Shown: positions 1 to 26,900 of the stretch, one piece after another | Numbering within the stretch: position 1 is the stretch's first letter | How the letters are laid out: every line of letters begins with the position of its first letter | Assembly: GCA_965649055.1 (NCBI GenBank) | Contig: CBFGJG010000025.1 | Span: 1-28,635 of the forward strand | Direction of reading: 5' to 3' | Source: a candidate division WOR-3 bacterium | Lineage (GTDB): Bacteria; Hydrothermota; UBA3072; B12-G15 | Length of the DNA: 28,635 nucleotides | The notes under the pieces: generated by a model | The model's input: the letters and a program-made list of their open reading frames with translations, nothing else | Told to the model about the DNA's origin: nothing | Databases searched by the model: none | Position numbers and translations under genes: made by a program

Positions 1-105
1 TCCCGATCTTACGGGAGTTCGATTGCTACGCAATAAGCCGAGATGTGAGTATACGAACAATTCCCCTTCGTTGCAATCCCGATCTTACGGGAGTTCGATT
101 GCTAC
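1..105 (-). CRISPR. Leader-proximal end of a CRISPR array: partial repeat 1-29, 40-bp spacer 30-69, full 36-bp repeat 70-105; the array runs off the left edge
   Basis: 1-29 is identical to 77-105. The minus-strand repeat GTAGCAATCGAACTCCCGTAAGATCGGGATTGCAAC has a TCCCG/CGGGA hairpin and ends in ATTGCAAC (an ATTGAAAC-like Cas6 handle). It is adjacent to an AT-rich leader and to cas1/cas2. Confidence 0.93.
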
Positions 106-170
106 AGCACCCCTTGAAAGTTATTTAACACCAATAACTTATAAGGGCATTTCCGACACAGACCTAAAAA

Positions 171-190
171 TTATCCACATTTTATCCACA
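171..190 (+). promoter_or_regulatory. Two perfect tandem DnaA boxes (TTATCCACA at 171-179 and 182-190)
   Basis: Exact matches to the DnaA R-box consensus, 2 nt apart. Confidence 0.6.
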
Positions 191-290
191 TTTTTCATAA
201 CTCATTCATTTTGAACCACAACGACGACAAGTTTGAAATTTTTTCAATTTTCGCTATAAATTATTAATTTTAAGAAGGTTATAAGTCGAA

Positions 291-310
291 TGTGGGAAAA
301 ATGTGGAAAA
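291..310 (-). promoter_or_regulatory. Two imperfect DnaA-like boxes in the opposite orientation (TGTGGGAAA 291-299, TGTGGAAAA 302-310)
   Basis: 2 and 1 mismatches to TGTGGATAA, with the same 2-nt spacing as the pair at 171-190. Confidence 0.45.
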
Positions 311-328
311 CTTTGGTCGTCGTTCGGA

Positions 329-365
329 AAAATTATTACAAACTTGTACAATTTGTAATAATTTT
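329..365. repeat. 37-bp near-perfect palindrome in the CRISPR leader
   Basis: AAAATTATTACAAA-C-TTGTACAA-TTTGTAATAATTTT; removing C343 leaves a perfect 36-bp palindrome. Confidence 0.85.
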
Positions 366-447
366 AAAATTTACTTTCGATTCTACTATAATTGCTTCAA
401 TCAAATTTAAACTTTTTTCTTTTCAAAGAGCAATTTTAATTTTTATT

Positions 448-476
448 ATTATAAATGATTTTTAAAATTTTGTCAA
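448..476 (-). promoter_or_regulatory. Sigma70 promoter for the pre-crRNA
   Basis: Minus strand TTGACA (476-471), 17 nt, TATAAT (453-448): perfect consensus, pointing into the array. Confidence 0.8.
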
Positions 477-479
477 GTG

Positions 480-1295
480 TTATTTTAACATTTCTTCAAT
501 AATTTCACCCTTATGGGAAATTTTCATCCTGTAAATTACATTCTCATCTTTTTCAAGTTCAATAAGCCCGTAAAGATTCAATCTTTCGATTTCGTCTCTG
601 TTTTTATTCACAATTTCTCTACATTCTTCACCTGAAATTATTGTTTTTTGCTTCATCATCTTTAAAATATCCGCTTCCATCCCTTTAGGTATATAAAACA
701 TCTTTGGGAAGAAAATCACTTCGTTAAATTCTTCATTCATATAATAAACTTCTGAATCAACTATAAAACCAGCAAGGGCAGTTGCTATAACATGTGCTTT
801 CAGACCGCCAGTTGGGTTATAGAAAACCCTGTAACCCTGTTCTGTTTTCTTCTTACCAAGATAAATCAATCTGTCAAGTAGCAAAGAAATGTCTTTTTCA
901 AATTCTGTCTTTGCGTATTTTTCATTGAACATCTTTTCAAAAAAATATCCGGAAAATTCTCTACCATCATAAAGTCTATACCCGAGTTCTTTTAAATACT
1001 GTCCAATAACCAATCTACATAATTCATTTGAATGAGTGTTTGTCCCAAAAAGATACACTTCTATATTTTCAGGTTCTTTACCTTTTACTACCCTTAAAAA
1101 TGTATTCAACTCCGCAGAATTCTCGTATGGCGCTACTTTAAGAAAATCGAAAAGCCTATTTATTCCTTCTATATTATTTAATAATTCCTGCCAGTAATTT
1201 TCATCTGATATTTTTCTGTCTTTCGGTAATTCACCCTTTCTCTGTGCATTTGTTATCAGACTTACTCCACTGCTTATGATATGAAACTCTTTCAT
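480..1295 (-). CDS. CRISPR-associated CARF-domain protein, APE2256/SSO1393 (Crn1-like ring nuclease) family, with probable C-terminal winged helix
   Basis: N-terminal IISSGVSL strand-loop, SAELNT and YNPTGGLK motifs; C-terminus resembles a wHTH (RLNLYGLIE...KISHKGE); AGGAGG RBS; directly downstream of cas2. Confidence 0.8.
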   Translation of the reverse strand: MKEFHIISSGVSLITNAQRKGELPKDRKISDENYWQELLNNIEGINRLFDFLKVAPYENSAELNTFLRVVKGKEPENIEVYLFGTNTHSNELCRLVIGQYLKELGYRLYDGREFSGYFFEKMFNEKYAKTEFEKDISLLLDRLIYLGKKKTEQGYRVFYNPTGGLKAHVIATALAGFIVDSEVYYMNEEFNEVIFFPKMFYIPKGMEADILKMMKQKTIISGEECREIVNKNRDEIERLNLYGLIELEKDENVIYRMKISHKGEIIEEMLK

Positions 1296-1310
1296 ATATC
1301 CTCCTCCTAT

Positions 1311-1583
1311 TTAAATTACATAAGTTTCATCATATTCAACCGGTTTACCTTCTCCTATTATCTCTACTTTACTATCTTTGTCAAGAAAATAAATCCTGAT
1401 ACTATCGGTTTTTATATCTATTTTCCTTTTCAGTTTCTCTATCATTATTTTAATCTGTTCATCGGTTAAAACACATTCAAATACACTGTATTGAACTCTT
1501 TCACCCCAGCTTTTCATATCTTTAAATATTCTGTTCCTTCTTTTATCATCAGTTATATCGTATGCAACAACTATTTTTTTCAT
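1311..1583 (-). CDS. cas2: CRISPR-associated endonuclease Cas2
   Basis: VVAYDITDDKRR, RVQYSVFEC and DSIRIY motifs; 90 aa; 4-bp overlap with cas1. Confidence 0.97.
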   Translation of the reverse strand: MKKIVVAYDITDDKRRNRIFKDMKSWGERVQYSVFECVLTDEQIKIMIEKLKRKIDIKTDSIRIYFLDKDSKVEIIGEGKPVEYDETYVI

Positions 1584-2536
1584 TCAACTTTATAAGCAGT
1601 GAATTGGCTTCTGTTTAAAATAGCATTTGCAAGTTCATTTGAATAATCAGAAATTATCTTTCTGTAATGGGAAATTCTGTTATCGTAGTATGTAAAAAAC
1701 TTCCTTTTCCCATTTCTATTCAATATAATTCTTTCTTCGTTTTCATCTTTTTCAAAATCTTCTTCAATATTTATAATATTTCTCGAAATCATCTCTACAA
1801 CCCCTGTATCAACAACAGGTGCTCTAAGGAATTCCATAAAATCAAGTGCAAGTGCTGGTCTTGAAGGCCTAATAATGTGATAATATCCAATATAAGGGTC
1901 AAGTCCTGCAATTCTTAAATGTGTTATGCATTCAGATAGTAAAACTGCATATCCATAACTCAGTAAGGCATTAACAGGATCAACAGGTGGATGCTTCTTT
2001 CTTATAAAATTTTCCCTGTTTATAACTTTACCAAAAACTTCAAAATATATTGCACTCCCAACGCCTTCTAATCCCATTAATCCGTTCTTCCCATTTTTAT
2101 ATTTTACAGAATCTAAAAGGCTGTCAAATCTTTCTATCCCGGTGGAACATTCCATATCCCTTCTTGAAATCCACCTTTTCAAAATACTTCTCTGATTCCA
2201 TAACTTTGCATATACAATGCTTTTACAAATATTCAGGACAAACTCCGGTTCGTCAAGTGTTGAATATTGTTCTATTCTTCTTTTTATGTTTTTTGAGAGT
2301 AATGGCTCAACAATCCCTTTTAACCTTCCTTCTATTGAAAGAAATGCTATTGGAATACCTAATTCTAAAAACAATGATAAAGCCTGGGTTGTTATCTGAA
2401 CATTACCAATTATGATAACCCTTTCTATTTTGTTATATGGTATTTCAAATATCTCTAAACCATCCTTTTCAACTACAACCCTTCCTTCTATTTTTCTTAC
2501 CTTTGAACCCTGCTCGGTTAAATATAATGAACTCAT
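1580..2536 (-). CDS. cas1: CRISPR-associated endonuclease Cas1
   Basis: LYLTEQGS start, GLEGVGSAIYF, PPVDPVNALLSYGY, GLDPYIGYYH and LALDFME; catalytic E/H/acidic residues present. Confidence 0.97.
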   Translation of the reverse strand: MSSLYLTEQGSKVRKIEGRVVVEKDGLEIFEIPYNKIERVIIIGNVQITTQALSLFLELGIPIAFLSIEGRLKGIVEPLLSKNIKRRIEQYSTLDEPEFVLNICKSIVYAKLWNQRSILKRWISRRDMECSTGIERFDSLLDSVKYKNGKNGLMGLEGVGSAIYFEVFGKVINRENFIRKKHPPVDPVNALLSYGYAVLLSECITHLRIAGLDPYIGYYHIIRPSRPALALDFMEFLRAPVVDTGVVEMISRNIINIEEDFEKDENEERIILNRNGKRKFFTYYDNRISHYRKIISDYSNELANAILNRSQFTAYKVE

Positions 2537-19888: not shown

Positions 19889-20003
19889 TGTGGATAACCT
19901 GTGGAAAATTTGTCCAAATCTTATAAGCAATTGATAATCAATAAAATAAACCTAACCCATTATCCACAAAAATATTATTTTTTTGATAAAAATCAACTGA
20001 TTA
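19889..20003. promoter_or_regulatory. DnaA-box and IHF-site cluster (oriC-, datA- or DARS-like)
   Basis: TGTGGATAA 19889-19897, TGTGGAAAA 19900-19908, TTGTCCAAA 19910-19918 and TTATCCACA 19960-19968; exact WATCAANNNNTTR matches at 19924-19936 (minus) and 19991-20003 (plus). Confidence 0.65.
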
Positions 20004-20026
20004 AGAAGGGATTTTGAACTGAAACT

Positions 20027-23946: not shown

Positions 23947-26900
23947 TCAATAATCCTCAGTGATAATATGCACCATATCAAATACCTGTGATTTTGAAAG
24001 ATTCTTTAATGTTATTGCACCAGACGGGCATCCCGCACTGCATGCACCACATCCTTCGCATATTGCCTCATTAACAACAGATACCTTCTTTTTCTTATCT
24101 ATTGTTATAGCAGAATACGGGCATATAGCCTCACAGAATCCGCATCCAGCACATATTTCAGTGTCAACATTTGCAATCACAGGTTCTCTCAGGAACTCGT
24201 CTTTTGAGAATAAAGATAAAACCTTACTTGCAGCACCTGAAGCATGTGATACTGTATCAGTAATATCCTTTGGGAATTGTGATACACCTGCAATGAATAT
24301 CCCTGATGTTGCAGTTTCAAGTGGTCTTAATTTAAGATGGACTTCCTGCATCCATCCATAGGCATCAGTTGGTATCCTCAATTTCTTTGCAAGTTCTTTA
24401 GCACCTAAAGAAGGAATCATTGCAGTTCCAAGGACAACCATATCAACCTCAAGTTCTATCCTCTCACCTAACAATGTATCAACACCAAGAATAACAATCT
24501 TATCATTCTTTCTATAAATTTTGCTAACCTTACCCCTCACATACAAAACCTCTTCTTCCTCTTTTGCCCTCTGTATAAATTCCTCATATCCTTTTCCATT
24601 TGACCTTATATCTATATAGAAAACATAAGCCTTTCCATCATGAACCTGATGTTTATAAAGCATTGCCTGTTTACCAAGATACATACAGCAAATCCTGGAA
24701 CAGTAAGCAAGGTTATGTGCAGGGTCCCTTGAACCTGCACAGCTTATGAACGCTATCGATTCAGGGATCTTTCCATCCGATGGTCTTTTTGGAACACCGG
24801 CAGTTGGTCCGGATGCACAGAGCAATCTCTCAAACTGTAATCCATCAATAACATCAGGGATTTTTCCTCCACCGTATTCAGGTATCTCTTTCAGATTAAG
24901 CAGTTCAAAACCTGTTGCAACAACAATTGCACCTACCTTTTCTTCAATTATCTGGTCTTTAAGATTATGGTCAATTGCCTTTGGCTCGCATTTCTCAACA
25001 CAGAGTTTACACTCAGAGCATCCACCACAATTTATACACCTTTTTGCCTGTTCAACAATATCCTTATCAGAATAACCTATTTCAACCTCATTGAAATTAT
25101 TTATCCTTGAAGAAACAGGGATTGAAGGCATCTTCATCCTCGGTATTTTTTCAGCAAGTTCCCTATATCCTATAAGTTCTGATTTAAATGGGGGCTCAAA
25201 TTCCCTGTTTTCGTATAAATCCTCATTATTTAAGAATTTCTTTATAGATTCAGCTGCCCTTCTTCCATCACCAACAGCATCTATGAATGTTGCCGGTCCT
25301 CTTGATACATCTCCACCAGCAAATACCTTTGGTATTGAAGTCTGCAAGGTTATTTCATCTGTTAATATACTTTCCCATTTTGTCTTCTTTATATCGATAT
25401 CACCAAGGAATGAGAGCTCAGGCCTCTCACCTATTGCAAGTATAACATTATCACAATCTATTGTATAATTTGAACCCTCAACCGGTATTGGTCTTCTTCT
25501 TCCTGATGAATCAGGTTCACCGAGCTTCATCTTTATTAACTCTACCTTTTTAAGTTTTCCATTTTCACCTATGAATTTCACCGGATTTGTCAAAAATAAT
25601 ATCTCAATACCCTCTTCGACTGCAGCCTCAACCTCATCCTTTATTGCAGGCATCTCCTCTATTGACCTTCTATAAATAATCTTTACCTTCTTTCCTAACC
25701 TCAATGCAGTCCTTGCAGCATCTATTGCAGAGTTTCCACCACCAACAACAAAAACATTCTCACCCAATTCGACCTTTTCACCCAAATTCACCTTCTTTAG
25801 AAAATCAAGTGCACCTATTACACCTTGAAGATTTTCTCCCTCAATTCCCATTTCCATCTCTCTGTGTGCACCTGCTCCAATAAAGACCGCATCTGAATTT
25901 TCAAGTATTTCCTTAAATGTTATATCTTTTCCAACCTCTGTATTCATCCTGAATTTTACACCTGTTGATTTTATAAAATCTATTTCCCTTCTTAAAACAT
26001 CCTTAGGGAGTCTGTAAGATGGAATACCTGTAAGAAGCAATCCCCCAGGTTCGGGAAGTTTATCAATAACCTCAACCTGGAACCCTTCAAGCCTCAGGTC
26101 GTATGCACATATAAGCCCTGCAGGACCTGCACCAATTATTGTTATCTTTTCTTTCCTTTCTTCTTTTATCTCAAAATTTGTATCTATCTTACCCTTTGTA
26201 TTCCATTCCCAATCAGCAAGGAATCTCTTAATATATTTTATTATGACTGATTCATCAACATTCTTCCTATCACATTCCCCTTCGCATGGATGTGTGCATA
26301 TCCTTCCTGCAACACCTGCAAACGGGAATCTGCTTTCCTCCCTGATTATCTTGATTCCCTGGTCAAATCTTCCAGCCCTTGTTGCAGCAACATAACCCTG
26401 AACATTCAGATGTGCAGGGCATCTTGCCTTACAGGGTGGTGTTCCTTTTTTCTCAATAGTGAACACATTAGGAACAGCCTGTGCAAATGGTCTATAAATT
26501 GCCTTTTTCAATGATAGGTAACCATTATAATTATCAGGGATTAAAACAGGGCAAACCTCAGAACAATCCGCACATCCTTTACATTTACTATAATCAACAT
26601 AGGCAGATTTTCTTCTTATCTTAACATTGAAATTTCCAATGTATCCTGAAACACTATCTATTTCTGAATATGTGTATAACTTTATATTTGGATGCTGACC
26701 AACATCCGTCATCTTAGGTGTCTCAATACATTGCGGGCAATCAAGTGTCGGGAATGTCTCTGAAAGAAGTATCATCTTCCCGCCAATAGTTGGCTCCTTC
26801 TCTACAAGCACAACCTCATATCCACCATCCGCAATATCAAGCGAAGCCTGAATCCCTGCTATTCCACCACCTATAACAAGTGCCCTTTTTGTTATAGGAA

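Follow-up and report, generated by a model that had tools for sequence, protein, structure and literature searches.

IHF sites are known in the CRISPR leaders of E. coli and P. aeruginosa, and in the type I-E layout the IHF site lies between the leader motif and the leader–repeat junction. To our knowledge, the proteins with a demonstrated action at leaders are limited to IHF, HU and archaeal histones. DnaA has an established role as a transcription factor: DnaA boxes control transcription in dnaA autoregulation, in the DnaA-box clusters of B. subtilis and at nrdAB and mioC of E. coli. In addition, datA and DARS of E. coli and the B. subtilis clusters represent single chromosomal sites that tune initiation.

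Three reports describe host factors at leaders for IHF (types I-E and I-F), for HU (the type III-A system of Thermotoga profunda) and for histones (Pyrococcus furiosus) (PMC13769266, PMC13748974, 10.1101/2023.05.26.542337). In the abstract and passages of PMC13769266, DnaA is mentioned only in passing, in connection with HU at oriC, and PMC11879090 does not mention it. The DnaA targets described in the papers that we found include no CRISPR locus. A search of the full-text literature, which had the leader-motif survey of Santiago-Frangos 2021 outside its scope, revealed neither DnaA boxes in a CRISPR leader nor DnaA as a CRISPR host factor; this agrees with the sequence-only reading from which our analysis started, which was not aware of such boxes as a described leader element.

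The leader considered here resembles the IHF, HU and histone leaders in having a predicted site for a non-Cas host protein within ~100 nt of repeat 1 and at a conserved distance from it. It differs from the IHF leaders in that its words are DnaA boxes and no IHF consensus is present. DnaA is not a nucleoid protein like IHF, HU and histones but an initiator and transcription factor that recognises a specific sequence; moreover, the module described below is confined to one genus and is known here from sequence alone. With the DnaA-box rows that control transcription, the leader shares phased same-strand boxes placed between a promoter and its transcribed target, as in the 5'UTR of the organism's own dnaA, but what is transcribed here is a CRISPR array, which is non-coding. 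The tandem arrangement of two boxes with an 11-bp register is shared with the unwinding core of Bacillus-type origins (tandem boxes, DnaA-trios and AT-rich DNA), whereas the leader pair has no CTA-type trios and occurs in three copies. As in datA, DARS and the B. subtilis clusters, the boxes lie away from the origin, but the closer analogue of those sites on the same contig is a second cluster, at 19889–19968. The finding thus belongs to one of two known kinds, namely leader sites for host factors or control sites with DnaA boxes outside the origin.

Anatomy of the leader and its DnaA boxes

The window, i.e. the whole stretch of DNA that was analysed, is 28,635 nt long and makes up an entire contig (C25) of a draft genome (2.08 Mb in 85 contigs, 31.6% G+C) from an uncultured hot-spring bacterium. 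The CRISPR array extends beyond the start of the window; its first repeat, 36 nt long, is GTAGCAATCGAACTCCCGTAAGATCGGGATTGCAAC on the minus strand, and the transcribed-sense end of the repeat is ATTGCAAC. The features used below are as follows, L026 being the orthologous leader found in a congener.

1–105, minus strand: end of the CRISPR array next to the leader (partial repeat 1–29, spacer 30–69, repeat 1 at 70–105)
106–479, minus strand: CRISPR leader, between cas1-cas2-CARF and repeat 1, read toward the array
106–122, minus strand: motif TTTCAAGGGGTGCT close to the junction; other leaders of the Cas1 clade have related TTTCAA(A/G)G motifs
148–157, minus strand: leader motif GTCGGAAATG, conserved
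166–195, minus strand: 30-nt invariant block AAAAATGTGGATAAAATGTGGATAATTTTT, including the boxes at 171–179 and 182–190; 65 nt from repeat 1
220–228, no strand: second inverted-repeat arm, GTCGTCGTT in the transcript, a conserved feature
291–310, minus strand: distal box pair, TTTTCCACA at 310–302 and TTTCCCACA at 299–291; in 3/3 copies of this genome, absent from L026
316–324, no strand: inverted-repeat arm (AACGACGAC/GTCGTCGTT), the 5' arm in the transcript
329–365, no strand: palindrome TTATTACAAA..TTTGTAATAA followed by T5; one symmetric (compensatory) change in L026
423–431, minus strand: GCTCTTTGA motif, kept in all four leaders and also in leaders of more distant Cas1 relatives
448–476, minus strand: consensus sigma-70 promoter TTGACA-17-TATAAT, 12/12 matches (−35 at 476–471, −10 at 453–448)
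480–2536, minus strand: adaptation module (CARF-type Cas_APE2256 480–1295, cas2 1311–1583, cas1 1580–2536)
19889–19968, no strand: separate DnaA-box cluster (tandem pair, 51-nt gap, inverted perfect box)

The segment 106–479 is a genuine CRISPR leader, as had been read from the sequence at the outset, because the cas1-cas2-CARF genes on the minus strand and the 12/12 promoter both face the array; the paralogues share this segment. Arrays with the same repeat have a common leader, which was found in the window, on contigs C68 and C4 of the same genome and in L026 (where the repeat differs at 5 positions). The C68 copy, 96% identical to that of the window over 259 nt, is located at the start of its contig beside cmr5 and cmr6 of a type III-B effector, while the C4 copy (80% identical) lies inside its contig ahead of a one-spacer array, the far repeat of which is truncated.

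Read toward the array, the leader passes from the promoter through GCTCTTTGA, the palindrome TTATTACAAA..TTTGTAATAA with its T5 run and AACGACGAC to the distal boxes, and then through ~60 nt of AT-rich DNA, GTCGTCGTT, the proximal block, GTCGGAAATG and TTTCAAGGGGTGCT to repeat 1. The C4 and L026 leaders retain the −35, and a similar promoter type occurs in related leaders. Since these related leaders carry the same consensus promoter together with GCTCTTTGA, the promoter at 476–448 is likely that of the pre-crRNA; as predicted from the consensus alone, transcription would start near 441. No sigma-70-like site with at least 10/12 matches was found between the boxes and repeat 1. Two other candidates were rejected: no sigma-54 promoter is seen on the leader sequence, and the promoter-like ATGAAA-17-GATAAT that arises from the boxes is weak, with 9/12 matches and a −35 that is not conserved in L026.

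In the leaders of distant Cas1 relatives, the same promoter type and a CTCTTTGA motif are located only 100–170 nt from repeat 1, from which it follows that the leader in the window is an expanded one. The proximal boxes occupy the transcribed part of this unusually long leader, ~250 nt downstream of the promoter and the predicted start. The palindrome at 329–365 could serve as an operator or a weak terminator-like hairpin. The arms of the AACGACGAC/GTCGTCGTT inverted repeat are ~90 nt apart, and the bases flanking them lengthen the complementarity differently in L026. Across the Cas1 clade, a motif of the GCTCTTTGA type recurs just past the promoter or at the repeat (L030, L036, L040 and L112), and TTTCAA(A/G)G recurs 10–17 nt from repeat 1. 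The IHF consensus, taken as WATCAANNNNTTR, has 0 matches in the leader (106–479) and 3 in the whole window, of which 2 fall in 19889–20026.

The strict DnaA box is TTATCCACA, and its relaxed consensus is TTWTNCACA. Two perfect boxes are located at 171–179 and 182–190 on the plus strand with a 2-nt gap, and they read TGTGGATAA on the transcribed sense strand. Both lie on the same helix face (11-bp register), with A5 and T5 tracts at the flanks of the pair. The distal pair is weaker and is not conserved beyond this genome: TGTGGGAAA at 291–299 has 2 mismatches to TGTGGATAA (1 to the relaxed consensus), and TGTGGAAAA at 302–310 has 1 under the strict and 0 under the relaxed form. The sequence-only reading had described these boxes as a set of four; re-reading of the DNA reproduced its coordinates, spacing and opposite orientation of the distal pair, but perfection is limited to the proximal pair, the distal boxes being weaker by their 2 and 1 mismatches.

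That reading had also expected fewer than one perfect box in the window and had noticed four, in two intergenic clusters, and the count holds: composition predicts ~0.36 and 4 are found, all in the leader and in the spacer at 19889. At up to 1 mismatch the window has no overall enrichment (17 boxes against 11.2 expected, a number reached in 8/100 shuffles), and the signal resides in the perfect boxes and their pairing. In the whole genome, 42 perfect boxes occur against 26 expected, and 6/42 belong to the leaders. A genome scan for box clusters had been proposed as a check; for pairs with the 2-nt gap (up to 1 mismatch per box) it gave 8 in 2.08 Mb, whereas 30 simulated Markov-1 genomes had 0.13 on average and never more than 1. 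Five of the eight are in the three leaders, 2 overlap in the dnaA 5'UTR, 1 is at 19889, and there are none elsewhere. Around the seven remaining arrays and array pieces (six with other repeats and one representing the far end of an array with the C25 repeat), 0 boxes at up to 1 mismatch lie within 400 nt.

Conservation and distribution of the box block

L026, from a congener with Cas1 78% identical, is the only orthologous leader found, and conservation is read from this one independent orthologue within the same genus, the three copies of the C25 genome being paralogues that are not counted separately. The two leaders have 60.3% identity over 393 aligned columns. The 30-nt box block AAAAATGTGGATAAAATGTGGATAATTTTT is the longest stretch in which they do not differ, a length that 0/20000 shuffles of the match vector reach. 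Next in length come 20 identical nt with CCGAACGACGAC at their end, the −35 region, TGTCGTCGTT, TGCTCTTTGA and GTCGGAAATG. The conserved block exceeds the boxes themselves, since the A5/T5 flanks and the AA spacer are invariant too, and the proximal pair is separated from repeat 1 by 65 nt in both leaders, with no indel between.

At the position of the distal pair, L026 has unrelated sequence. Inspection of an orthologous leader, suggested in the sequence-only reading, thus gave a divided answer: the proximal pair lies in the best-conserved block of L026, but the distal pair is missing. The symmetry which that reading had attributed to the set is accordingly specific to the C25 genome. For the proximal pair, two outcomes that would have counted against the reading, frequent pairs in the intergenic DNA of the genome and absence from an orthologous leader, did not occur. 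Within this genome, both pairs are present in all three paralogous leaders (C25, C68 and C4); in the C4 leader, the sequence that follows the distal pair toward the array is divergent, the pair itself being kept.

The leader RNA of the window has a strong predicted fold (z −6.7), in which the minimum-free-energy structure pairs the distal with the proximal boxes, and the two pairs are complementary at 17/20 positions as counted on the sequence. In the L026 leader, no partner complementary to the box block was found. Since L026 keeps the block without this partner, RNA pairing between the boxes cannot be the conserved function, and the distal–proximal pairing is not the conserved feature.

A further contig (L027) encodes the same Cas1 as L026 and stops 226 nt past cas1. 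The proteins of its neighbouring genes are 85–91% identical to those of the C25 genome, which indicates a congener as its source. Upstream of its cas1 (L027:4128–4700) we observed hairpin-bearing ~77-nt repeats (GTCATTGCGAGG..CGTGGCAATCC) that do not represent a CRISPR array.

To see how far the leader extends beyond the genus, 160 Cas1 loci (80 metagenome and 80 genome) from alignment-based scans were considered, and the leader orthologue was present in only 1/160 of them, namely L026. A single-protein Cas1 scan of genome_contigs gave no match; one Cas1 relative, P0002, is 85% identical. The leader DNA compared with 60 relatives recovered only the paralogues of its own genome, the remaining matches being short (27–70 nt) and mostly confined to a promoter-distal, AT-rich stretch of it. 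The C25 repeat, at up to 3 mismatches, is absent from the 271 other genomes of the phylum, and no sequence in viral_contigs matches the 26-nt box block. The sequencing runs listed for this stretch include no RNA run. Among hot-spring DNA contigs, 1/4 runs gave matches to 85–225 with 0–3 differences per short contig and to 221–315 with 10–11, and these matches are not counted as evidence on the boxes.

The proposed enrichment of boxes in the leaders of related arrays did not materialise, either in leaders with Cas1 at most 55% identical, at the other arrays of the same genome or in array flanks at large. Leaders of the first kind, including L028 and L029 (same repeat family, Cas1 55%), have no pair and no perfect box, and 108 array-upstream flanks hold 6 boxes against 10 expected. 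Single perfect boxes 63–71 nt upstream of repeat 1 at L136:8838 and L137:7865 (Cas1 35% identical) were set aside as further support, because they represent one lineage and occur at about the chance level. The “array” flags of L214 and L233 among 50 loci of relatives proved to be simple tandem repeats and not CRISPR. The box module is real, under constraint and, as far as seen in these searches, confined to the genus.

DnaA, the likely origin and other box clusters

The DnaA protein of this organism keeps the DHTT..H stretch of domain IV, the residues of which we take to be those reading the box. It is encoded by a single dnaA gene on contig C16; the product of 437 aa matches PF00308 (E 1e-70) and aligns full-length to solved DnaA chains (8btg, E 2e-120). 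The gene is preceded by four boxes in an 11–12-bp register (TGTGGATAA, TGTGGAAAA, TGTGGATAA and GGTGGATAA), which stand downstream of a TTGACA-16-TATGAT promoter, the last of them 2 nt before the start codon. The leader boxes and those of the dnaA 5'UTR are the same 9-mers (TGTGGATAA and TGTGGAAAA), and the proximal leader pair has the same orientation relative to transcription as the dnaA boxes. The initial recognition of the leader boxes as DnaA-type words is borne out by this phased row of the same words ahead of the organism's own dnaA.

In the dnaA–dnaN spacer (contig C16, ~26160–26310, L001), weak boxes are followed by CTACTACTG, with CTA trios, and by AT-rich DNA, and the same layout is found in two relatives from the order (L234 and L235). 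This spacer, and not contig C25, likely holds the origin. The leader pair was considered as a replication origin or unwinding module and rejected, since no CTA trios adjoin it and its three copies are each located beside a CRISPR array; the DNA after the pair reads TTTTTCATAACTCATTC, without CTA repeats.

The 2-nt tandem geometry noticed earlier at 19889–19908 is confirmed and is accompanied by a further box: a perfect TGTGGATAA (19889–19897), CC and TGTGGAAAA with 1 mismatch (19900–19908) are followed by a perfect inverted box at 19960–19968. This cluster sits between convergent genes, outside the CRISPR locus. In family relatives L231 and L232, a cluster of this type lies directly past the stop codon of the HD-GYP/GAF orthologue, as in the window; the layout is found beside different genes in G001 (L233), and similar ones occur in other families (L196, L197, L199, L209 and L214). 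The cluster at 19889–20026 is not the origin and may represent a DnaA-regulatory site.

Among 272 genomes of the phylum, the tandem box pattern (up to 1 mismatch) occurs at 61 places in 45 genomes, compared with 2 places for a reversed-pattern control. The family relatives G001–G003 have one tandem pair each, none of them in a leader. In family f38 (G153–G164; L200–L207 and L216–L220), a multi-copy element of ~300 nt, often found at contig ends, contains, in this order, two palindromes of the form ACTGACAT..ATGTCAGT, one inverted repeat, a tandem pair of perfect boxes and a third palindrome, with a sigma-54-type promoter (GGCAC-N5-TTGC) ~62 nt downstream. Sigma-54 is encoded in 3/3 f38 genomes tested and in the genome of the window. 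A dense cluster of at least 8 DnaA-type boxes was also observed on two contigs of G245 (L227 and L229), in opposite orientation.

Possible roles of the leader boxes

From the presence, rarity, conservation, position and orientation of the boxes, all read directly from the DNA, we infer three further things: DnaA binding, an effect on transcription and a tie to the replication state. The sequence-only reading, in which DnaA may act as a host factor or roadblock, is supported in part, by a genuine leader with a conserved proximal pair of DnaA-type words but not by symmetry or by wider occurrence. Binding of DnaA to the 30-nt leader block is probable. With more reserve, and at somewhat less than even confidence, we suggest that a lineage-specific DnaA module in the transcribed leader of a type III-associated array tunes transcription into this array. 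DnaA would bind the phased proximal pair 65 nt upstream of repeat 1, and in the C25 genome the second, weaker and convergent pair 100 bp upstream would reinforce it. The bound DnaA would hinder or tune RNA polymerase entering the array, and the supply of crRNA would track the level of free, active DnaA.

Control of transcription is favoured by the position of the boxes between promoter and array, by their orientation, which is the same as at dnaA, and by the character of the module as an add-on that is dispensable in related systems. However, relatives with Cas1 at most 55% identical function without the module, and a roadblock needs no fixed 65-nt distance to the repeat. Upstream of the boxes, the palindrome and U-run that follow the promoter might also terminate transcripts prematurely, and the array would then have to be served by a different, unseen promoter. 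The invariant A5/T5 flanks and the AA spacer fit a DNA-shape or architectural role at least equally well.

Such an architectural role in integration is the main rival, and we hold it to be possible, though on the doubtful side: DnaA on the phased pair, assisted by the A and T tracts, would bend the leader and guide Cas1–Cas2 to the leader–repeat junction, as IHF, HU and histones do in other systems. Leaders elsewhere need host DNA-binding proteins, according to two reports (PMC13769266, PMC13748974). In the present case, the 65 nt to repeat 1 are maintained in both lineages with no indel, despite divergence of the intervening sequence; the A5/T5 flanks fall inside the invariant block, the leader is free of the IHF consensus, and both HU/IHF-family genes of the genome score below the IHF and HU equivalog cut-offs. 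The f38 elements add to this argument by placing the same perfect pair between palindromes, ~62 nt upstream of a sigma-54-type promoter; in proteobacteria, the position upstream of a sigma-54 promoter is typically occupied by IHF. The location of the pair fits less well, because it lies beyond the GTCGGAAATG motif and not between this motif and the junction, unlike IHF in type I-E. In addition, DnaA in such a role is not reported in the literature searched, and none of the more distant leaders in this Cas1 clade has the module, which means that it is not a core requirement.

A wider proposal, which at present seems unlikely to us, is that a phylum without a clear IHF recruited phased DnaA-box pairs as a general DNA-shaping module, with DnaA acting as the Cas1–Cas2 integration host factor. 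The perfect pair does occur in two settings, the CRISPR leaders of the C25 genus and the multi-copy sigma-54-type promoter elements of f38, and proteobacteria use IHF in both CRISPR leaders and sigma-54-type promoters.

It is also conceivable, although rather improbable, that some other factor recognises the 30-nt block or that the block acts in the leader RNA, so that the likeness to DnaA boxes would be a resemblance only. The distal “boxes” of the C25 genome would then exist to pair with the proximal ones in a long hairpin, as they do in the predicted fold (z −6.7, 17/20 positions complementary), and the conservation reaching past the 9-mers as well as the adjoining CARF-domain gene, which could encode a regulator, would be in line with this. 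However, a motif present in inverted copies is necessarily complementary to itself, L026 retains the block with no complementary partner, and exactly the same words, including the TGTGGAAAA variant, occur at dnaA and in the conserved 19889 cluster.

We see little probability that the ten leader boxes in three loci represent a DnaA reservoir of the datA or DnaA-box-cluster kind, which would titrate or recycle DnaA while the CRISPR context is incidental. The leaders do hold 6 of the 42 perfect boxes of the genome, and the family conservation of a non-origin, non-promoter cluster at 19889–19968 indicates that the lineage keeps such sites. Nevertheless, the pair travels with the leader in three paralogues and a congener at a fixed distance to the repeat, a register which titration does not require, and G001–G003 have one tandem pair each with none in a leader. 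Finally, chance or a passively inherited non-functional relic, suggested by the occurrence in one genus only and by AT-rich spacers that favour such words, is already disfavoured and very improbable in view of the 8 pairs against 0.13 expected, the 30-nt invariant run reached by 0/20000 shuffles and the 2 places of the control pattern against 61.

Both the preferred reading, in which DnaA tunes transcription into the array, and its architectural rival bear on open questions, namely how non-proteobacterial leaders are marked for integration and how CRISPR output is related to the state of the cell. A conserved and high-affinity-looking predicted DnaA site provides a concrete new candidate for a leader host factor. 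Should its effect be on transcription, no earlier case would exist of a CRISPR array under the control of the replication initiator; should it be on integration, the host factors of leaders would gain a sequence-specific member linked to the cell cycle. DnaA as an integration host factor, if true, would link the acquisition of immune memory to the replication initiator, and the leader pair hints at such a link between replication and CRISPR immunity.
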